This document shows positions 3,266 to 24,168 of a stretch of DNA of 64,000 nucleotides, in pieces (the stretch's first letter is position 1; each line of letters begins with the position of its first letter). The DNA is from a virus. Below the pieces are notes generated by a model, which had not been told where the DNA came from, did no database searches, and was given only the letters and a program-made list of their open reading frames with translations. Location of the stretch: IMG/VR virus record IMGVR_UViG_3300045988_135167; one strand, given 5' to 3'. The position numbers were made by a program, and so were the translations under genes.

Positions 3266-5465
3266 CGATGGCCCACATTCTTGGTGTAGTGTCTGTAATA
3301 AGGTAAATAGTGGTTGGGTCTTTCGTGGCCAGAGCCGTGTAGGCCGCCTTGGTAGTGGTTACTATCTTGGCGTAGCGTGCGTCTCCCATGGCTACGTTGA
3401 CTCCCATGTTGTCAGTCAACGTGGTTCCTTCGGCAGGGGCTGGAAACTCAATAGGTAGATTCAATCCGACTTTCCCGTTTGCAGGGCCTTCAAGCCAGAA
3501 ATCAGCTCCTGAGGAATACATGTTGATTGAAGTACCAAACTGGATTCCGGTACCATCTGCAATATTGAGTAAACCATTGGAATTGATGGCACCTGTAACG
3601 GTGAGGGTTTGCCCCATCGTAACGCCCGCATTAAAGGCCGCCGCACCCGTAAAGGTAGTTATTCCAAACTTCCAATCCCCGCTAACTTCTACCGTAGTAG
3701 GAGTGGAAGCATTGTATCGAATACTGTTGGGTCCGAACTGAAAGACTTCTGCCTGACAAGTTCCTGAAACTGAAACTGATTCCATAACAGGAAGGACCAA
3801 ACTACTATCTGCGGTTGGAAGAGAAACTTCAACGCGCTTTGCCGCATTGTTGTAGTTCAGCCTAAAAAAGACTGTGGAAGTGGAATCAATGAAACTAAAA
3901 CCAGAGTTACTGGGATCACCATAGTAACCTTCAATGCTTCCAGACAGTACGCCAACACCATCCATTAAAACAATGGGCTTATTACTTTCAATCCCATCGC
4001 CAAAGGAAGCTTTTCCAGCCACGGAAAGAGTCTGACCCATAGTGACACCTTGAGTGAAAGTCGCAGGTCCTTGAACTTCAAATTTCTTTCGGAACCAGAC
4101 ATTCCCTGTAGGGTCGAAAGTTAACCACACAGTATTGTTTCTCTGAACAAGCTGGTAATAGCCATTGTTGGCTGTATAGGTCCACTTACAGCCATATGCA
4201 GACAGAGTTGGATGGTTCTGCTCCATAAGAGTTTCCATTGCAGAACTCCCTTCCGTAATCCCAAAGGATATGCCTTTCTCTGCTTTAATCATTGTAGAGA
4301 AAGTAGTGGCATCCTGAAACACAGTCGGCTCCTGAAAGGTAGTAGAAACCGCCACATCCAGGTGTGCTCCGGTCCCTCCTTCAATTACCGACATCCCGGC
4401 ACCCGTGCCATGGAACTTAACGGCATCGGCACCAACGCCAAAAGTCAACGGAGCTTCATCAGCCATGGTAACGCCGTCGGTAAAAGTTTTAACCCCGGCA
4501 ACATTCTGGTTTCCAACATTCTTTACCGTAGGAGCAATCTGGCCATCCACGTATAGTTTGTTCGTAAGGTCACTAGGGGCTGAAGGGCTTCCCGTTTTCA
4601 TAATTCCCCCAGTAAAGGTCTTGTTACCAGAAATCGTTTGCTCCGTATCCAGAGTAACAAAATTGGCTCCTATACCGGAAACCGCATTGTCCACATACGA
4701 TTTGTTCGCCGCCTGCCCGGCCTGGGTAGGAGTGGGAACAGTGATGTTGGTAAAGCTCCACGCCCCAGTAATCGTGGCATCAGAAGAGGGCGTAAGTGAA
4801 TCTCCTGAGCCTGCGCTAAAAACCACGGGGGAGACCGTGATATTGAACTTGACGTTGGAACGTCCACCGAGATGTAGGATAGGCTTGGCCCCTGTCATCA
4901 CAAACAAATGGGAACCCACTGTGGTAACTCCGCGGAGAATGACCTGGGTGGCCTTGGTTCCCGTCAATCCCACGATGACGGCTGAGAAGGTTTCATCGGT
5001 GACAATGCCGGGTGTCTCCGGGTAGTCCTTGTCCTGCACCGGGAGAACCGAAAGCACGTACATCTTGCCCGCTTCCAGATTCAGGGAACTCAAGTCATAA
5101 TAGCCTGGAGCCACGGACGTTCCTGCCACAAACGGATTGATGGGGTCCGCAACTTCCATTTGGAACTCCTGCTCCACCAGAGCCATAGTCGCATGTTCCG
5201 TTACAGGCTCTTTGACCACGCGGAAATAACCGTTGGACAAAATAGGAAGAATCAGACCTGTAACCGTCCCATTGATATGGAACTGAGTGTCTTGAATGTT
5301 GCTCCAGTCTTCATCCGTTGGAGCGGTTGCCGTCATCTGGAACACCGCTCCCTGGGTCGTGGATTGGAGAATCCACGCTTCGGAGTTCATCTCTCCGGGA
5401 ATCTGGTAGGTCGTTCCCGCGGTAATGGGATCGCCCGAATTATATTGTACAATGTCTAAAGCCAT
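3228..5465 (-). CDS. Tail fibre protein, about 745 aa.
   Basis: Large Gly/Thr/Ser-rich beta-type protein with repeated KSYVDNAVSG and NKLYVDGQIA fibre-like motifs. The true start is MALDIVQYN at 5465. The listed MFHVEH start is an artefact of the palindrome. Confidence 0.6.
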   Translation of the reverse strand: MALDIVQYNSGDPITAGTTYQIPGEMNSEAWILQSTTQGAVFQMTATAPTDEDWSNIQDTQFHINGTVTGLILPILSNGYFRVVKEPVTEHATMALVEQEFQMEVADPINPFVAGTSVAPGYYDLSSLNLEAGKMYVLSVLPVQDKDYPETPGIVTDETFSAVIVGLTGTKATQVILRGVTTVGSHLFVMTGAKPILHLGGRSNVKFNITVSPVVFSAGSGDSLTPSSDATITGAWSFTNITVPTPTQAGQAANKSYVDNAVSGIGANFVTLDTEQTISGNKTFTGGIMKTGSPSAPSDLTNKLYVDGQIAPTVKNVGNQNVAGVKTFTDGVTMADEAPLTFGVGADAVKFHGTGAGMSVIEGGTGAHLDVAVSTTFQEPTVFQDATTFSTMIKAEKGISFGITEGSSAMETLMEQNHPTLSAYGCKWTYTANNGYYQLVQRNNTVWLTFDPTGNVWFRKKFEVQGPATFTQGVTMGQTLSVAGKASFGDGIESNKPIVLMDGVGVLSGSIEGYYGDPSNSGFSFIDSTSTVFFRLNYNNAAKRVEVSLPTADSSLVLPVMESVSVSGTCQAEVFQFGPNSIRYNASTPTTVEVSGDWKFGITTFTGAAAFNAGVTMGQTLTVTGAINSNGLLNIADGTGIQFGTSINMYSSGADFWLEGPANGKVGLNLPIEFPAPAEGTTLTDNMGVNVAMGDARYAKIVTTTKAAYTALATKDPTTIYLITDTTPRMWAIGDMGIVTADVPA

Positions 5466-5480
5466 AAGAAAAAGGAAGTT

Positions 5481-5510
5481 GGGGAAATGTTCCACGTGGA
5501 ACATTTCCCC
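5481..5510. promoter_or_regulatory. 30-bp perfect palindrome GGGGAAATGTTCCACGTGGAACATTTCCCC, located 8 nt after the upstream stop codon and 15 nt before the tail-fibre ATG.
   Basis: Direct reading. The core TGTTCCACGTGGAACA is shared with three other sites. The minus-strand transcript then has a U-rich run (cuuuuucuu). Confidence 0.8.
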
Positions 5511-5518
5511 GGTTAAGG

Positions 5519-6484
5519 TTAAGCCAGCGGTCCCAGGTAGGAGAACACCAACGTTCCGCTGGGGTTGCTCCCGGTGGAAGCCTTGGCAATCGTCACCATG
5601 GTAGTGGCCGCGGCCGTCGGGGCACCGATGGAGAAGATCAGGCGGCCGACGAACTGGTTGCCCGTGAGAACCTTCCCGGCAAGAACCAGCGGAACCAGGC
5701 CGCTGGCGGCCGAGGTGGCACCCAGCACTTCGGAAGTGATCACCGTAGCGGTGGCTCCAACCGTCAGCTTGGCATCCCAGGTGGTGGCTCCAGTCGCAAC
5801 CGGAACGGACACGTCCACCGCATAGGCTCCGGCGGGCATTCCCGCGGGAAGCTGGAAGTCAGTGGAAGCTCCGGACACGGCACCCTGGACGATCCTGGTG
5901 GCACAGGGCAGAACCTGGGCCTGGACGACCGTAATGACCGCGGGAGACACGCCATCCAGGAGAACCTGTAGGTTGGCGTTCACCGCTGTCACGAAAACAG
6001 CGTCCCATCCGGGAAGAAGGGGCGTTGCTTCAGCAACCACGTTATTCAGGGAATCATCCATGAACCGGAGAAGCACGGTGGCCATCGGGTCGGAACAGGT
6101 GATCTTGTAAACGCTACCGGGAGTCAGAGCGTTGGGAACATTGTACCACAAGTCCGGCTGTGCAGGAGAAGGAGAAGGAAGGTTCCCAATAGCGGGAGCA
6201 TCCTTCTGAATCATGCTCAGCGTGACCTTGGCTTCAGACAAGCCAATCACGGTGAAGTATGCGGAAGTCTGGCCTGCATCCGTGGTGAAAGCCACTTCGC
6301 GGTTATAGAGCCTTCCGGATGCCTGGACCGTGGTCCCGGCTTCTTCCTTGGTGATCAGGACTTCAACAGGCCTGTCCGTATTGACTTTGAACACGTACCG
6401 CTTGGTGGCAACAAGCTCTGTAAGCTGGTACTGGGTGCCCGGTACGATGGCCACTTTGTCGGCGGGAATTGGAATAGTAGGCAT
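5519..6484 (-). CDS. Structural protein, 321 aa, Ala/Thr/Val-rich.
   Basis: ORF in the structural operon. Confidence 0.45.
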   Translation of the reverse strand: MPTIPIPADKVAIVPGTQYQLTELVATKRYVFKVNTDRPVEVLITKEEAGTTVQASGRLYNREVAFTTDAGQTSAYFTVIGLSEAKVTLSMIQKDAPAIGNLPSPSPAQPDLWYNVPNALTPGSVYKITCSDPMATVLLRFMDDSLNNVVAEATPLLPGWDAVFVTAVNANLQVLLDGVSPAVITVVQAQVLPCATRIVQGAVSGASTDFQLPAGMPAGAYAVDVSVPVATGATTWDAKLTVGATATVITSEVLGATSAASGLVPLVLAGKVLTGNQFVGRLIFSIGAPTAAATTMVTIAKASTGSNPSGTLVFSYLGPLA

Positions 6485-17586: not shown

Positions 17587-18173
17587 CAGGGTTTAACCAG
17601 GATTGCTTTCCAATCTTCAAGAGTCAATGAATTGTCTTCCATCTCCGTGCGGTAGGCGTACAGGGCAATCAGCAGTGCATCTGCGGTGGTCAGGGTCACC
17701 CTAATCTGGGGAAAGAGTTCCTGAGCAATGGCCTTCAAGTGCCGCTTCCATTTCTGGTAGCCAATGCCGGAAGAGGTCAGTCCGGTCTCATAGGCTCCGA
17801 CTGTTCGTTGCCATCGCTGGGGTAACACCGGAACCACCTTCATCCCCAGGGCTGTTGCGGTTCCCTTGAGGTCTCCGACGTTTTCGCCCAGCACGCCCAT
17901 GGACCGGGGGTTGCTCAAGCGGATGAAGTTTCCTTCCGAATCGCGTCGGCCTCCCTGGGCATAGGTCAGGAACTCATAGTAGAACCGGGCGGCCTTCGGA
18001 GTCTGCACCAGCCGAAGAAAGTCCACAACCCCCTGAAGCTTCGGAGGCATTGCTCCGTAGTAAATGACTTTGTTCTTGGTGTCCAGGTGGACCAGCGCAC
18101 CATTCTTTTTTCCGGGGTCGCACGCAATGATTCGGAACTTTAACGTCTTCATGATAAATAGAAATCCCCGCAA
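17586..18173 (-). CDS. RuvC-like Holliday junction resolvase, 195 aa.
   Basis: N-terminal FRIIACDPGKKNGALV matches the RuvC/RNase H-fold signature (I-x-DPG-x-x-x-G). Confidence 0.5.
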   Translation of the reverse strand: MRGFLFIMKTLKFRIIACDPGKKNGALVHLDTKNKVIYYGAMPPKLQGVVDFLRLVQTPKAARFYYEFLTYAQGGRRDSEGNFIRLSNPRSMGVLGENVGDLKGTATALGMKVVPVLPQRWQRTVGAYETGLTSSGIGYQKWKRHLKAIAQELFPQIRVTLTTADALLIALYAYRTEMEDNSLTLEDWKAILVKP

Positions 18174-18267
18174 CCTTCTAAGGGGTTACGGGGATTCTAT
18201 GGATTTATCGGAGTGTTGTCAACCTACTTCAGGTTTGTTTCAATCCACGCGCCTGGCGTGGCGCGAG

Positions 18268-19041
18268 TCACTTCAGGAACTCACCCATGGATGATTCCTG
18301 GAGAGCTTCGACCTGGCCTTCGATCTTGTTGGGGTTGATGTTCACGCGGAACTTCCCATACTTGGCTCCAGTGGTCTTGCTCACTTCCACCGTGCAACCG
18401 ATCTTAACACGGAAGGGACGGAGAGCAAGGGCGGGATCAGAGGCCATCATGGCGAAGGTGTAGAGCGGCTTGCCGGTGGTGTTGTACTGGTTGCCGTTGG
18501 CAATGCAACGGGCCATGCACCACTTGGAACCCATGAACTCCTGTTGGAAGAAGATGTCCAAGGCACTGTCGGAAGAGTTCTTCACGACGGTTTCCGGACG
18601 CTTGATCAGCAGGATCATGGAAGCCACATTGTCAATGTCGCGGTCGGTGAATCCTTCAGCGAGATATTCATCACGGGTCTGGAACGCGCGGGGGATCGTG
18701 TTGGCATCATAAGCCATGCGTTCCCGGTAGGATTTGTTCAGGGACAGGACGATACATTCCAGGGGGTTTTCACTGTTGGCCACCACAGAAGTCAGGAGCG
18801 GGGAGGAAATGATCATATCCCCAACCTTTCCATCAATCTCGGAAGCGTAAGTTCCCTGGCCGGAATAAAGCTTCAGGTGGGGGTAATTAACGTCACGGGC
18901 ATCAAAGTCGCCGCTAATGGCGGCTACGGTCTGGTCCGGCTTTACGGCCGTGGCCACTTCACCTTTTTGAGGAGTCGCAAGGGTTTCTTCAACTACATCG
19001 GCAGGTTTTACTTCTTCGTCTTTCGGTGCTACTTTAGGCAT
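18268..19041 (-). CDS. Hypothetical protein. The likely start is MPKVAPKDEE at 19041; the ORF track's 19122 start would place a hairpin inside the coding sequence.
   Basis: ORF. The GGCGGGTTGACCCCGCC hairpin at 19059-19075 lies upstream of the ATG at 19041. Confidence 0.4.
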   Translation of the reverse strand: MPKVAPKDEEVKPADVVEETLATPQKGEVATAVKPDQTVAAISGDFDARDVNYPHLKLYSGQGTYASEIDGKVGDMIISSPLLTSVVANSENPLECIVLSLNKSYRERMAYDANTIPRAFQTRDEYLAEGFTDRDIDNVASMILLIKRPETVVKNSSDSALDIFFQQEFMGSKWCMARCIANGNQYNTTGKPLYTFAMMASDPALALRPFRVKIGCTVEVSKTTGAKYGKFRVNINPNKIEGQVEALQESSMGEFLK

Positions 19042-19099
19042 ATCTCTCGTATGATTATATGTTCGTATTGCTGGCGGGGTCAACCCGCCAGGGAGAATC

Positions 19100-20452
19100 C
19101 GCAGAACCTCCCTGACGAGCAATACCCCTGTTATCCTATTAAGGATGGGTTAAGGCTATCACAGCGGGAAGCAAAGTCAATTAGGATTTCATTAAAAATT
19201 CATATCCTTAATTATCTAGAATAAATTTCTATGATTCTCGCTTCGACAACTCGCTAACCTTCCACTGGTTCTCCCAGTCTCTAGTGAACTCGAATCTCCA
19301 CGAGCGTAAGTTTCCGACTCCTCATCGGTACAATATTTTAAAATATTCAACGCCGCATTCAGGTCCCTATCTGCGGTATAGCCACAAAAAGGACATTTAA
19401 ATGTGCGCTTGGATAAATCCTTCATCGCACGATGACGTTCTCCGCAACAAGAACATAACTGCGATGAAGGGTACCATGGATCAACAAGCTCAAACGTACG
19501 TCCTGCACGAACGCATTTATATTCAAGCTGACGACGTATCTCATAAAATGATTGCTCTCCAATACTTCGGGCGAGATGATGGTTTTTCATCATGCCCTTG
19601 GTGTTGAGCGTCTCCATCCGAATCGCTTGGTTCTCGCGAACAAGGAATGAAGTCATTTTATGGATAAAGTCTGTATGTTGGCGCATTAAGCGTCTGTTGC
19701 GTTTTGCCAATGCGATTTTGGCTCTTGTGCGTCTCTTGCTACCTTTATGGCAACGAGAAAAATGTCTTTGAGAAAGCTTGATGCGACGCAATGAACGCTT
19801 CAAAGGGTTCCAACAAAAGACTTTTCCATCAGAGCAAGTCACAGTGGATTTGAGGCCAAGATCAATACCAACTTCTTTATTTACTAAAGGAAGAGACTCA
19901 ACAGGGTAATCGAAAAGAACTGAGCAATAGTAATCAATCCCATCCGTAGAAAGAGTGGCTCGTTTCAATTTCACATCTGGGATATAACCTTTGTTGTAAA
20001 ACTTGACCCGACCAAGTTTAGCAAGGCGAAGATGGTTACCATCCTCAAGACGTGGAACTGTGGGACTTACAGAAGAATAAGACTGTCTTAACTCTTTCTT
20101 ACTCTTGAACTTAGGGTAACTTGCCGAATGTGACCAAAAGCGCTGAAATGCTTTTGAGAGATTGTCGAAAACAAACTTCGGTATTTGAGAATCACACTCA
20201 TTAAGCCACATGAAATTAGAGTCCTCTTTCTTAAGCTTTCTTATTTCATTCCCAAGGTCAAAAGCGGATGGCCTTTTGGGCCGCTGATCCTTGGGGTATC
20301 TTTGTTCTCTTCCCACCATTTGTTGAGTCTTTCCAATCCCCAATTCCAAAGGAATCTTGAAGCACCAAAATTCCGATGAACCAATTCTTTTTGGAACTTG
20401 TTCAAATGAACTTTCACTTTACGACTCTGAAACATAGTTAAATTAAAGCAAC
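19100..20452 (-). mobile_element. IS200/IS605-family tnpB-only (IS1341-like) element. The boundaries are approximate.
   Basis: TnpB ORF plus a hairpin-rich 3' flank, inserted 17 nt after the upstream gene's stop. Sits at the junction between the structural and replication modules. Confidence 0.55.
19216..20435 (-). pseudogene. tnpB: tnpB (IS605 OrfB, RNA-guided nuclease family), interrupted by a +1/-1 frameshift near 20270-20300.
   Basis: N-terminal fragment 20241..20435 (KVHLNKFQKELVHRNFGASRFLWNWGLERLNKWWEE, the OrfB N-terminal HTH) and the body 19216..20349 overlap in different frames. The body carries the RuvC/zinc-finger C-terminus CSCCGERH...CPFCGYTADRDLNAALNI. Confidence 0.65.
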
Positions 20453-21661
20453 TTATTTTTCCCTCAAAAGACGAACCGAAGTTTTCCGGGCCGTCACGAT
20501 CCCGGAAGTCTCCAGGTCATTGATCAGGGCTTGCTTGATGGCATCCCTTTCCTTTTTGTTCGCTTCAGGAGCCATCTTGTCCAGCAGGACCACCAGGGCC
20601 TTTTTGAAAGAGACGCTGTTGGTGCATGCCATCAGCTCTTCCTGCGTCAGCTCTTCCCGCAGGTAAGCGGTCAGGGCTTCCTTGTTCACAGTCAGAAGCT
20701 CGCCGCCATTGTCGAACTTCCAGCCGGGAACCGGAATCCCCATGGCATTGAGGCTCTTGGCCGTTTCCTTCAACTGGTTTTGAGCCTCGGAAGCCACCTT
20801 GTAAAAGGATAACAACTTGCCTACCAGCACATTGTTCTGCACGGCATCCAAAATGTTGCTTATGTCGGTTCCCTTCAGGTCTTCTTCCTTCAGCACTTCC
20901 GCGGAGAAGGAAATGGCCAGCTCCGTCACCCGGCGGCAGGATGCACATTTGGCACAATACGGGCACACATCCGGGGAGGACTGGTAGGTAAACGGATTTT
21001 CCCGGTCGCGGTTCCTCCGGGAAATCACCGCCTTGTAGCCATCGCGGGCCTGGCGGTAATCCCTGGCCGCAAAATTGACATGATTTTCCCGGAGCTTCTT
21101 TTTAGACGAGCGGACCATCCGGGCCACCTTCAGGCTGTCGGAAAGTGTGGGCTGGATCACGGCCAGATAACACTCCTGGCACTGGCGGTTCTCAGCGAAC
21201 TCGAACACGCCGTAAATCATCAGCTGGGAATTGTCCTTGGGGTGGGTCACGGGGAGAAGACCCATCTTGTAGTCGGCAATACAGGACTTGTCGCCGCACC
21301 GGATCAGCACGTCGGCCGTCCCGCTTTGCTTTTCCTTCAGGCCCTTGAACGTCACCCCGCGGAACTTGTGCTCCCGGATGATGTTCAACTCCCCGCGCCC
21401 CACGCCCCAGAGGGAGCAGAGTTCATCCAGCAGGGATTCCAGGTCCGTATTGGCCCGGTTGTACAGGGAGGATTCATGAACGGACAGCAGGGGTTCGGGG
21501 TCCTGCTTCTCCAGGGCATAGTGGATTCGGGAACCGACGGCGGCCGGGGAGAACTCGTCCTCTTCTTCGTCTTCCCGCTCACGGTCTTCATAGCCGGGAC
21601 AGGTAGCGATCATCATCACCTTGGAAGGTGAATACTTGGTATGACTTACAGGGGTACTCAT
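20453..21661 (-). CDS. PD-(D/E)XK nuclease of the Cas4/RecB type with a C-terminal Cys cluster, 402 aa.
   Basis: IADYKMG (D-x-K motif), QLMIYGV (QxxxY), and a C-terminal CPYCAKCASC iron-sulfur-type cysteine cluster. Confidence 0.55.
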   Translation of the reverse strand: MSTPVSHTKYSPSKVMMIATCPGYEDREREDEEEDEFSPAAVGSRIHYALEKQDPEPLLSVHESSLYNRANTDLESLLDELCSLWGVGRGELNIIREHKFRGVTFKGLKEKQSGTADVLIRCGDKSCIADYKMGLLPVTHPKDNSQLMIYGVFEFAENRQCQECYLAVIQPTLSDSLKVARMVRSSKKKLRENHVNFAARDYRQARDGYKAVISRRNRDRENPFTYQSSPDVCPYCAKCASCRRVTELAISFSAEVLKEEDLKGTDISNILDAVQNNVLVGKLLSFYKVASEAQNQLKETAKSLNAMGIPVPGWKFDNGGELLTVNKEALTAYLREELTQEELMACTNSVSFKKALVVLLDKMAPEANKKERDAIKQALINDLETSGIVTARKTSVRLLREK

Positions 21662-24168
21662 TTTTCTATCAGTGTTTCCAGGTTTTCTTTTTTCTCTTCA
21701 ATGACTGCGGCGATCTTTTCCTCAATGGTGTTGGCCGCAACCAAAATGAACTGCCGCGTGTCGCTCTTGGCTCCGGCGCGGTCAATGCGTCCCAATGCCT
21801 GGACATTATCAATCAGGCTGTAGGAGAGGCTTAAAAGGGAGGCACGGGGACGTTGCCCATTGATGTCATGCAGGGAGAGTCCGGCTCCCCCGGCCTGAAT
21901 CTGAATGAAAGCAATATGGGCTTCGTCCCGCTGGAACTTGTCAATGGCCGCCTGGCGGCTCTTTTTGGACTGCCTTCCATCAATCCGGACGGAGGGAACC
22001 TTCGGGAACATTTCTTCCAGCGCATTGATGCTGTCCAGGAAAGTGAGGAACACGACCACGGAACAACCTTCATCCAGAAGGTTTTGCAGGAACTCGGCAA
22101 TCGTCGGGATTTTGTGAAGCTCCACTTCCTGCCGGGCGCGGAGCAATTCCACCACAGCCGGAGGCCCGGCATAGTCCCGGCCTTCCTCAATGGCTTTCAT
22201 CATGGCTTCCTCGCTCTTGATCAGGTCGGCATCCAATGTATTCTCCATCTTCTCCAGCCACTTCTGCATGCTGTTGATCCGGGAGACGGTCTCCTTGTCG
22301 TAGTCCACCAGCACGGTCTGGATGAAGGAGGTGGTGAAGTAGGGAGCCATTTCCGAGCGGTCCACCTTGGTCAGAATCCCGGCTTCCTTGAGACGGGAGT
22401 TGATGCGCTCCATGTGGGAGATGGTGACTGGAGTGCGGACAAACTCCAGGCCGCCCCAGAAAGCGTGGGTGCATCCATGCTGAAGCATCCAGGCCGTCTG
22501 GGAGATGTAGTTGGTGAACATGCCGAAGGCATAGGCGAAGTAGCCCATGTCCAGCGGATTGATGAAGGGTGTAGCCGAGAGAAGGATCGTTGGTATCTTC
22601 ATGCGGGCGGCCGAAACAAAGGCCAGCCCTTGCAAAGAGAACCGCCCCGCCCGGAGGGCCTGGGCCTCGTCTGAGATAAGCACGGCATCATCCGGGAGGT
22701 TCCAGCGGCCGAGGTTGACGCACCGCTTGTCCCGGCGAACCGGAGGCTTGTACCACCGGGTGTTTCCACGGACCAGCTTGGCATAAGTAAGCACATCATA
22801 ATACTCCACCTTCTGCTGGTCCAGGGCGCGCTCCCAGGAAGAGACCACAGCCTTGGGACAGACCACCACCGGGCGTTTTCCCATGCGCTTCACCGTCTCT
22901 ACAGCCATCAAGGTATTATGGACAATGGTAAAATCACCAAGGAGAAAACGATGGTCCACGTCGTTTACAAACCCGTAATAATCTCCGACCCCTATTGCCT
23001 CTACTTTAAACCCGGTTCTTAAAACATTCTTCTTTTGTTTTCTAATTGAACATTTTCTTCTCGGTACTCGAACAGGTATGCAACTTATATTTCCAGATAT
23101 AACAATTATATAATATAAATCTTCCTTATTAGTATTGGTACAAACCTTTTTTCTAAGCTTGGAATAAGAAGCAAAACCTAATGATCTGGCTACAAATAAT
23201 ATGTCTTCACAAAATCCTTTATATTTTGTGGAAATCTCATAACATCCATTTGTTAAATACCCATCAGTATCAATGATACCTGCAAGAACATTTAATCGGG
23301 TTTCATGACTTCCACATTTATATGGGTGCTTTATCCGTCGTTCCTTCCCATTAAAAATATTTCTATAAATAATCTGTCGTGGAAGTTCTTGGTTCTTGCT
23401 TATACTGGTAAAACTTAAAGGGGTAACACGGTTTACCGCTTTTATTTCTTTTGCCCTCCATCCGATACTTTCAGCGTACCCTTTACAATATTCCAATACC
23501 TCATTATCAACATTGGTTATTTGAGAACACGGGTAGAGCTTTCCATTTACTGTTACAGGTGAAGAGCCATCACCCAAATAAACTCCTACAAAATAAGGGT
23601 CAAGCTCCGGTTTCTCTATCTCCGGGAAATCTACTCCGGTCCTTACCAGCTTGAATCGGTGTTTAAAAGTTTTGGATGATGAAAGATATTCTTTAAGAGA
23701 TATATCAATCAATTCCCCTGCCCAATATTTTCTACCTCCCAATGAAATTTTTACAGGTGTTGTTCCGGAAATTATACCTGTTATAATATGTTCATCGTTA
23801 ACAATATGGGGATCACCTTTAAAGGGAACGATACGATACATCGGGGCTTGGCCACGGGCAAGACTCAAAACTTGACGAGGACAAGAGTCCGGACCCATTA
23901 TTTTATCTCCGACACTTACTTGTTCAATAGGTTTAATTGTACCGTTGAACATCAGAACAGGAGTTCCTTTTCCGAAGCACTTGCCGACCCCGGTGTTGCT
24001 GGAGTTCAGCACAATCCCGTTGCGGCGCATGGACTCCAGCATTTCACCGATGCACCGCTCCTGCGGAGGGAACGGGTTCAGGGGTTCCGGAACATACGCC
24101 TTCTGCGTCTCCAGGGTTTTCCGGGAGGCATTGCCCGTATTGGTCAGTCGGATTCGTCGGGTCGGCAT
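21658..24168 (-). CDS. SNF2/DEAD-like helicase, 836 aa, interrupted by a 355-aa LAGLIDADG intein. The extein is about 481 aa.
   Basis: Walker A GVGK|T is split by the intein. DEAQALR motif II and C-terminal helicase motifs are present. Intein features: Cys1 (CFGKG), two LAGLIDADG blocks (VGVYLGDGSS and LAGIIDTDGYL), and a terminal HN followed by Thr. Confidence 0.7.
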   Translation of the reverse strand: MPTRRIRLTNTGNASRKTLETQKAYVPEPLNPFPPQERCIGEMLESMRRNGIVLNSSNTGVGKCFGKGTPVLMFNGTIKPIEQVSVGDKIMGPDSCPRQVLSLARGQAPMYRIVPFKGDPHIVNDEHIITGIISGTTPVKISLGGRKYWAGELIDISLKEYLSSSKTFKHRFKLVRTGVDFPEIEKPELDPYFVGVYLGDGSSPVTVNGKLYPCSQITNVDNEVLEYCKGYAESIGWRAKEIKAVNRVTPLSFTSISKNQELPRQIIYRNIFNGKERRIKHPYKCGSHETRLNVLAGIIDTDGYLTNGCYEISTKYKGFCEDILFVARSLGFASYSKLRKKVCTNTNKEDLYYIIVISGNISCIPVRVPRRKCSIRKQKKNVLRTGFKVEAIGVGDYYGFVNDVDHRFLLGDFTIVHNTLMAVETVKRMGKRPVVVCPKAVVSSWERALDQQKVEYYDVLTYAKLVRGNTRWYKPPVRRDKRCVNLGRWNLPDDAVLISDEAQALRAGRFSLQGLAFVSAARMKIPTILLSATPFINPLDMGYFAYAFGMFTNYISQTAWMLQHGCTHAFWGGLEFVRTPVTISHMERINSRLKEAGILTKVDRSEMAPYFTTSFIQTVLVDYDKETVSRINSMQKWLEKMENTLDADLIKSEEAMMKAIEEGRDYAGPPAVVELLRARQEVELHKIPTIAEFLQNLLDEGCSVVVFLTFLDSINALEEMFPKVPSVRIDGRQSKKSRQAAIDKFQRDEAHIAFIQIQAGGAGLSLHDINGQRPRASLLSLSYSLIDNVQALGRIDRAGAKSDTRQFILVAANTIEEKIAAVIEEKKENLETLIEK
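22915..23979 (-). other. Intein (Hint plus LAGLIDADG homing endonuclease) inserted in the helicase P-loop.
   Basis: Begins at Cys (TGC at 23977-23979) and ends at His-Asn (22915-22920) followed by Thr. Splicing restores NTGVGKTLMAVE. The central part (about 22980-23800) is markedly AT-rich relative to the flanks. Confidence 0.65.

Follow-up and report, generated by a model that had tools for sequence, protein, structure and literature searches.

A decaying tnpB/omega-RNA insertion sequence between two genes of an uncultured phage

The closest described systems to the element considered here are ISDra2 of Deinococcus radiodurans and the tnpB-only IS605-family elements of Geobacillus stearothermophilus, together with the mini-elements termed PATEs. 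ISDra2 is autonomous and carries tnpA besides tnpB, with an RNA scaffold of ~150 nt that overlaps the 3' end of tnpB and stops at the transposon right end. Its transposon-adjacent motif (TAM) is TTGAT. Most tnpB genes have no tnpA in their element, and in G. stearothermophilus a lone tnpB overlaps an omega RNA bounded by the right end, insertion is scarless beside a TAM, and the omega RNA encoded by protein-less PATEs depends on TnpB supplied in trans (Meers et al. 2023, PMC10055086). Retention and homing of these elements proceed via RNA-guided cleavage and recombination, and the guide in the canonical TnpB arrangement is the flank 3' of the right end (PMC10055086). A further member of this known group is found at positions 19182-20452, minus strand, of the DNA analysed here, the 64,000 nucleotides of IMG/VR virus record IMGVR_UViG_3300045988_135167 (hereafter the window). 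It is a non-autonomous, tnpB-only IS200/IS605 insertion sequence (IS1341-like). As an explanation of the whole, a decaying tnpB/omega-RNA insertion with a genuine, inherited one-base deletion is best supported, with a probability of roughly 0.85. No system of a new kind is revealed; this is an ordinary decaying mobile element.

The element shares with ISDra2 the domain architecture of its protein, the RuvC D-E-D triad, the zinc finger and the position of the RNA scaffold. It differs in having no tnpA, in the low identity of its protein (a distant match), in the frameshift of the window copy and in its candidate TAM, AAATAA. The G. stearothermophilus elements have conserved, hairpin-bearing ends and a TnpA in the same genome, whereas the left end here is 17 nt long and hairpin-less and no TnpA was found in the loci scanned; the present family also differs in its phage carriers and in having mini-elements with their own sigma-70-like promoter. 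The occurrence of tnpB in cultured phage genomes is common, with 618 matching INPHARED records including Klebsiella phage phiKp_32, Clostridium phage c-st and Geobacillus virus E3. However, all of these are <40% identical to the window protein, and the carrier phage has no INPHARED relative by DNA or terminase. TldR is likewise a phage-borne TnpB relative with an adjacent guide RNA, but it has lost the RuvC active site and is under selection as a regulator, whereas here the family triad is intact and the gene is lost by frameshift or nonsense mutation (PMC10705468 for TldR). Free-standing phage homing endonuclease genes resemble the element by analogy only. They too are small selfish nuclease genes between essential genes, show presence/absence polymorphism in close relatives and arrive with flanking recombination tracts; however, recognition here would be RNA-guided and the enzyme family is unrelated.

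The coding part of the element consists of two overlapping minus-strand open reading frames (ORFs) in different frames, 20241..20435 (64 aa, MFQSRKV...) and 19216..20349 (377 aa), which yield a 406-aa protein when joined at the overlap. This frame-corrected protein matches HTH_OrfB_IS605 (3.7e-09), OrfB_IS605 (5.9e-20) and Cas12f1-like_TNB (5.4e-25), all above the Pfam gathering cut-offs, and residues 7-377 match the ISDra2 TnpB structures 8bf8, 8exa and 8h1j with E ~6.5e-51. In an alignment of 20 family members, RuvC-I D192 (19861-19863) and RuvC-III D358 (19363-19365) are invariant and RuvC-II E275 (19612-19614) is kept in at least 90%. The zinc finger CxxC...CxxC (C328, C331, C348, C351) is also invariant and is present in the body frame of the window. 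By these features the element encodes a TnpB of the RNA-guided nuclease family, for which nuclease activity is predicted. The N-terminal frame (20241..20435), which holds the HTH_OrfB_IS605 part, is authentic TnpB until a run of C and then reads out of frame to its stop codon at 20241-20243. The body past the frameshift, with RuvC and zinc finger (19216..20292), is identical to the protein P0136 and ends at the stop codon 19216-19218, which falls in the loop of the terminal RNA hairpin. The G+C content of the element is ~41% against ~55% in the flanks. A preliminary description of the stretch, made from its letters and ORF listing, had named an IS605-family TnpB insertion in exactly these two frames, with the zinc finger and the RuvC-III end retained in the body; the listing and the residues bear this out, and the insertion itself is confirmed by the Pfam domains, the structural match and empty sites in relatives.

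The boundaries of the element are given by comparison with two such empty sites (L086 and L087), located by an exact-protein contig look-up in the same phage species, where the exonuclease gene is followed directly by a 257-aa gene. The empty junction reads ...GGGAAAAATAA|ATTGACTTTGC... and the occupied window reads ...GGGAAAAATAA|GTTGCTTT...AAATCCTA|ATTGACTTTGC, with the opening letters of the insert also given as GTTGCTTTAATTTAACTATG and its right end as ...AAATCCTA. This comparison, which had been proposed as a check, thus places the insert exactly at 19182-20452, a length of 1,271 bp (1,272 bp in the intact allele). The junctions have a 1-nt 'A' ambiguity, and neither a target-site duplication nor terminal inverted repeats are found between occupied and empty sites; such scarless junctions are as expected for IS200/IS605 elements. 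The left end consists of the 17-nt leader GTTGCTTTAATTTAACT (20436..20452), which separates the tnpB ATG from the stop codon of the preceding gene. This leader lacks a promoter, and no hairpin is detectable there, the DNA fold of 20376-20465 (90 nt) being no better than shuffles (z = 0.16). Some family members have longer left ends of 50-95 nt with a promoter. The 5' side of the insert is abutted by AAATAA (20453..20458), which includes the TAA stop of the exonuclease gene. The 5' flank is [A/C]AAATA[A/G] at five of six independent junctions (the window, L004, L008, L014 and a stand-alone RNA module), usually as the stop codon of the upstream gene, and AAATAA is offered as a lead to the putative TAM or target motif.

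The RNA scaffold of the element was recognised by comparison of family 3' ends, in whose alignment the nucleotides are conserved between the RuvC-III motif and ...GAATCATAGAAA at 19226. RNAalifold on 10 sequences gave 36 pairs, with 96% of cells paired, and 11 pairs changed on both sides compared to 4.6 +/- 1.5 in shuffles (none of 500 reaching 11) and 1-3 in slid controls. The resulting core (19226..19331), with hairpin 1 at 19314-19328 and a multi-helix domain, overlaps the 3' end of the ORF. Its covariance model R1 scores 99 bits (E 2e-20) at 19226-19331, the sole match in the window, and it also recognises all family tnpB genes at their 3' ends and, with weaker scores, those of some 35%-identical homologs. 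Only the comparative analysis is informative here: a single-sequence minimum free energy (MFE) fold of the window RNA did not reproduce the consensus structure (z = -0.73, non-significant). An Rfam scan of 18500-21000 with E up to 1 found no match, so that no curated omega-RNA family covers the RNA of this element. The preliminary description had remarked on a reading frame running unusually far past DRDLNAALNI. The long tail is real, but it is normal in the family because the ORF reads through the RNA scaffold.

Past the core comes a loop that varies between subgroups, with 7 to ~60 nt, and then a terminal motif, TATA[A/G]A..CC plus CCA or CTA, that pairs back to the core end. In the window the right-end terminal stem-loop occupies 19182..19245, where the scaffold end AGCGAGAAUCAUA pairs with the terminal motif UAUGA...AUCCU; the hairpin, from 19245 to 19183, contains the tnpB stop codon and AGGAT-n16-ATCCT. 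The terminal helix closes the variable loop in the MFE folds of nine of nine family variants, T:A is replaced by C:G at two of its positions between variants, and every locus has a single terminal motif, in each case at the tnpB 3' end. The scaffold is therefore ~150 nt long, overlaps the last ~115 nt of the ORF and runs through the terminal hairpin to the right-end boundary at 19182. A putative guide or target, ATTGACTTTGCTTCCCGCTG (19162..19181), is the flank immediately 3' of the right end, as follows from the canonical arrangement (PMC10055086) and the mapped boundary. Within it we infer the guide to be ATTGACTTTGCTTCCC (19166-19181). A guide starting directly after the core (TTTATTCTAGATAATT, 19210-19225) was considered and rejected: this stretch lies inside the inserted DNA, copies at four separate sites share an identical tail there, and in every variant the terminal motif of the tail is base-paired with the end of the scaffold. 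Candidate guides of that kind had no second match in the window or in loci L001-L087. The motif TATATAAAYCC was likewise rejected as a phage promoter, as it is found once per locus and confined to tnpB 3' ends; the window has no exact match and one 1-mismatch match, which is at chance level. No second tnpB or omega RNA was found within the window, and with no intact family TnpB elsewhere in it, the omega RNA of the element would have no protein partner there.

The window copy of the nuclease gene is dead, as the loss of one C from a run of five splits the ORF. The intact reference is a Logan contig (L001), 97% identical over 18.7 kb, in which this gene, at the corresponding locus, is an uninterrupted ORF of 406 aa (P0001). 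Across the element, the two sequences are distinguished by three substitutions and by a C that the window lacks. The inactivating deletion leaves C4 at 20293..20296, where L001 has C5, L002 has C9 and the eight independent loci L105-L112 have C4. This lies inside the interval of about 20270-20300 to which the preliminary description had assigned the shift, near CCCC and CCCAAAAGG runs. The C run does hold the shift of the window, while the CCCAAAAGG run (20272..20280) is the shift site of other copies instead: P0139 carries a separate frameshift there, from A4 to A3, and reads ...RYPQGSAAQRPSAF.... The product of the window from an internal ATG is identical to P0136 (367 aa). P0136 is always found at this locus between the same two genes, and C4 is the commonest allele among the listed members of its protein cluster.

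The gene has been inactivated independently in other copies, by a stop at E294 and by further frameshifts, which identifies it as decaying. Ten aligned copies from different samples have just 8 variable sites in 1,272 bp, and 5 of these are disruptive. They are delta-C140, the allele of the window; G880T, which converts E294 to a stop and leaves a 293-aa allele; delta-A115; and +4C and delta-T675, both in L002. In L002 the changes lie at ~6070 and ~6620 (C9 for C5 and T4 for T5; run ERR4158336) and may be real slippage or a platform artefact. Among the 15 of 48 cluster members listed, intact 406-aa forms are on 15, 5 and 1 contigs and disrupted forms on 145, 36, 35, 15 and fewer, which are rough counts. 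The tnpB gene is thus being lost in this phage lineage. L014 (6001-7231) is probably another frameshifted member, as its tnpB match spans residues 1-404 and the ORF from the ATG stops at 6348. The locus is a compact and well-delimited example of TnpB, for which one phage species in public assemblies offers an intact allele, several nulls and empty sites. This natural allele series is suited to asking if TnpB homes between co-infecting phages and if an active nuclease is costly to its carrier.

Three readings of the split gene had been put forward in the preliminary description, namely a decaying insertion, a sequencing error and a programmed frameshift, of which the first stands. A homopolymer error of sequencing or assembly, with the gene truly intact, is suggested by the nature of the difference, one base of length in a homopolymer run, and by the two homopolymer changes of L002 that resemble platform errors. 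Nonetheless, 145 contigs carry P0136 and 196 collection blocks index it, drawn from independent studies, from ENA and Logan assemblies and from several assemblers (metaSPAdes scaffolds, MEGAHIT k119/k141, Logan), and C4 is present in eight of eight loci inspected (L105-L112). Because of these repeated finds the error is excluded for practical purposes, and C4 is a genuine, inherited allele. Programmed -1 frameshifting at C CCA AAA G (20273-20280), by which the C4 allele would still yield the whole TnpB in the manner of IS1/IS3 transposases, is hardly more credible. A perfect X XXY YYZ heptamer (20274-20280), formally a -1 slippery C CCA AAA, does lie 13 nt past the deletion, in the N-terminal frame and ahead of its stop, and the body ORF remains intact in the common C4 allele. 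However, all 20 aligned family members and the C5 allele have continuous ORFs across this point. The heptamer is already present in the C5 allele in another frame and was therefore not selected for slippage, and such a heptamer is expected by chance in the 17-codon overlap at ~7% (17/256, by our own calculation). No downstream stimulatory structure was identified, and other lineages are null through a stop codon or other indels that slippage could not rescue. The programmed frameshift thus has no comparative support.

The loss of the gene may itself have been selected, with active TnpB costly, null alleles sweeping, and the RNA and right end retained. The share of disruptive changes, 5/8 of the variable sites, speaks for this, as do the independent nulls delta-C140 and the E294 stop, each far commoner than the intact allele on rough counts. 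Weighing the other way, the sample is small and drawn from clonally related lineages, nulls can hitch-hike on successful phage lineages, and the cost is hypothetical; selected inactivation is accordingly unlikely, though the strongest of the alternatives. More improbable still is a domesticated or beneficial phage gene, such as a nuclease against competing phages or a TldR-like regulator of the adjacent promoter. This could account for a subfamily (>50% identity) seen in phage contigs only and in none of 185,579 reference genomes with the patterns used, for occupancy in all 24 contigs read for one flanking-gene variant, and for a putative guide in the intergenic region upstream of the promoter of the next gene. 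It is opposed by the empty-site relatives, by disruption of the ORF in most listed copies through at least three independent mutations, by a RuvC triad that is intact and not degenerate as in TldR, and by family members at many different intergenic sites. The preliminary description had itself contemplated a domesticated gene at a constant locus, to which the empty sites and multiple null alleles do not conform.

Several points nevertheless weigh against a decaying tnpB/omega-RNA insertion as set out here. The allele frequencies are rough, as contig counts score split genes twice and cover 15 of the 48 cluster members. With a left end of 17 nt and no detectable hairpin, mobilisation of this copy by a TnpA is doubtful. 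The sixth 5' junction (L112) reads CTATTT and departs from the AAATAA motif. The linker from the last helix to the boundary varies from about 3 to 14 nt between variants, which is unusual for a fixed ribonucleoprotein geometry. The C CCA AAA heptamer lies in the right frame past the deletion, so low-level read-through is possible. Finally, the placement of the guide, the TAM and the activity of the nuclease are predictions.

Family members with 50-64% identity occupy different intergenic sites of related ~70-kb phages, and with the peptide patterns used no close relative was detected in the 185,579 reference bacterial and archaeal genomes. When searched by motif scan and tblastn, neither the 64-kb window nor loci L001-L015 and L086-L103 yielded a Y1 TnpA; the same motif scan did find tnpA beside distant tnpB homologs, which validates it. 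The ISEc46 locus of phage RCS47 also has no tnpA. Stand-alone omega-RNA modules with no tnpB ORF were observed in L092 (7427-7620, minus strand), L096, L098, L099, L101 and L103. Each comprises a sigma-70-like promoter (TTGACA-17-TATGAT), a ~120-nt scaffold and the terminal hairpin, placed after an upstream ...AAATAA stop, and four of the six are on IMG/VR contigs with a full-length tnpB of the same family elsewhere. The 5' end of the scaffold RNA is marked by these copies because they start there, just downstream of their own promoter. In L095 (8714-8969), one member has an internal deletion that joins the left-end promoter and the opening ~180 nt of tnpB to the final ~70 nt of the scaffold, followed by the right end.

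Recombination is recorded around several copies. L112, from a genome of the same phage species, has a second, apparently intact tnpB (5053-6450; 414 aa, ~58% identical) one gene downstream, between the 257-aa and resolvase genes. Its flanks of ~1 kb and at least 0.65 kb are 2-4.5% divergent, compared to 0.03% elsewhere in a 99.97% identical background; this second tnpB arrived by homologous recombination. Its right end supplies a new ATG and N-terminus to the resolvase, MKTKALKF in place of MKTLKF. In L087, a recombination breakpoint lies ~500 nt from the insertion site. At one intergenic site of related phages (flank ...CCAATCATG...ATGGC), three different right-end tails were seen, in L009 and L091, in L011, L012, L090 and L097, and in L095, respectively; the L009 tail is ~60 nt longer and looks composite. 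Three tails at one site suggest repeated insertion or replacement. Together, these observations on the family fit a spread between phages by recombination and are compatible with RNA-guided homing, which they do not prove.

An intact TnpB-omega RNA complex would be expected to cut empty alleles, in which AAATAA is followed by ATTGACTTTGCTTCCC; by recombining homologously with an occupied genome, the cut allele would then gain or regain the element. A spread independent of TnpA is hinted at by a distribution confined to phages, the very short left end, the guide-RNA genes that stand alone and the tracts of recombination. The lineage might be a phage-restricted TnpB/omega-RNA lineage that needs no TnpA and spreads among co-infecting phages by RNA-guided cleavage of empty alleles and recombinational copying. 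It would land after AAATAA stop contexts, and promoter-driven stand-alone omega-RNA genes would borrow TnpB in trans. This proposal is put forward as speculative, and we consider it considerably more likely to be wrong than right. If it were true, the lineage would be an RNA-guided counterpart of the free-standing phage homing endonuclease gene. The element itself is a decaying passenger, vertically inherited and reshuffled by phage recombination.

The DNA beyond the right end belongs to the phage. The empty site contains all of the sequence from 19181 downward, and 19042..19161 is a native intergenic region outside the element. The hairpins CAGGGAG...CTCCCTG (19089-19114) and GGCGGG...CCCGCC (19073-19089) are unchanged in L086 and L087, and are native phage sequence because they occur in relatives without the element. 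The preliminary description had sought the omega RNA in the flank at 19100-19215 with its three stem-loops. All three exist (the third at 19183-19208), although those at 19073-19114 lie partly outside this interval; two are native, the third is part of the terminal stem-loop, and the scaffold core is at 19226-19331. The annotation of the locus is corrected accordingly: the split ORF is a true pseudogene allele, the element is 19182-20452, the scaffold overlaps the 3' end of the ORF and the hairpins downstream are native. A near-consensus promoter, TTGACC-18-TATAAT (19054-19083; 11/12 in a promoter scan), is overlapped by the G+C-rich hairpins, and the fold of 19042-19181 (-48.4 kcal/mol) is better than 200 of 200 shuffles (z = -2.67). 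In this 5' region of the 257-aa gene the second hairpin encloses the -35 box, and the region may be a phage regulatory element.

The gene upstream of the element encodes an exonuclease (PHROG 69, DUF2800/PD-(D/E)XK). Downstream are the uncharacterised 257-aa gene, a Holliday-junction resolvase and the large terminase, and the insertion point falls after the TAA stop of the exonuclease gene and ahead of the next gene's promoter region. A position exactly at a module boundary, as had been described, is thus correct in so far as the element is near the replication/packaging boundary, but the resolvase gene still separates it from the large terminase. The host is an uncultured ~70-kb phage, and a gut origin is assumed from sample names only. 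Megablast of 18000-22000 and a terminase tblastn against INPHARED phages gave no match, nor did IMG/VR searches with the neighbouring 257-aa protein and with a flank pattern of 21 nt. No tRNAs were found in the window. The gene for an SNF2-type helicase (21658-24168, minus strand) is split by an intein, which carries a LAGLIDADG homing endonuclease (Hom_end_hint 7.9e-20, Hom_end, LAGLIDADG_3) and forms a low-G+C block at ~22750-23950 with 32-39% G+C. In L086 the helicase is uninterrupted (481 aa), so that presence of the intein, too, varies within this phage species.

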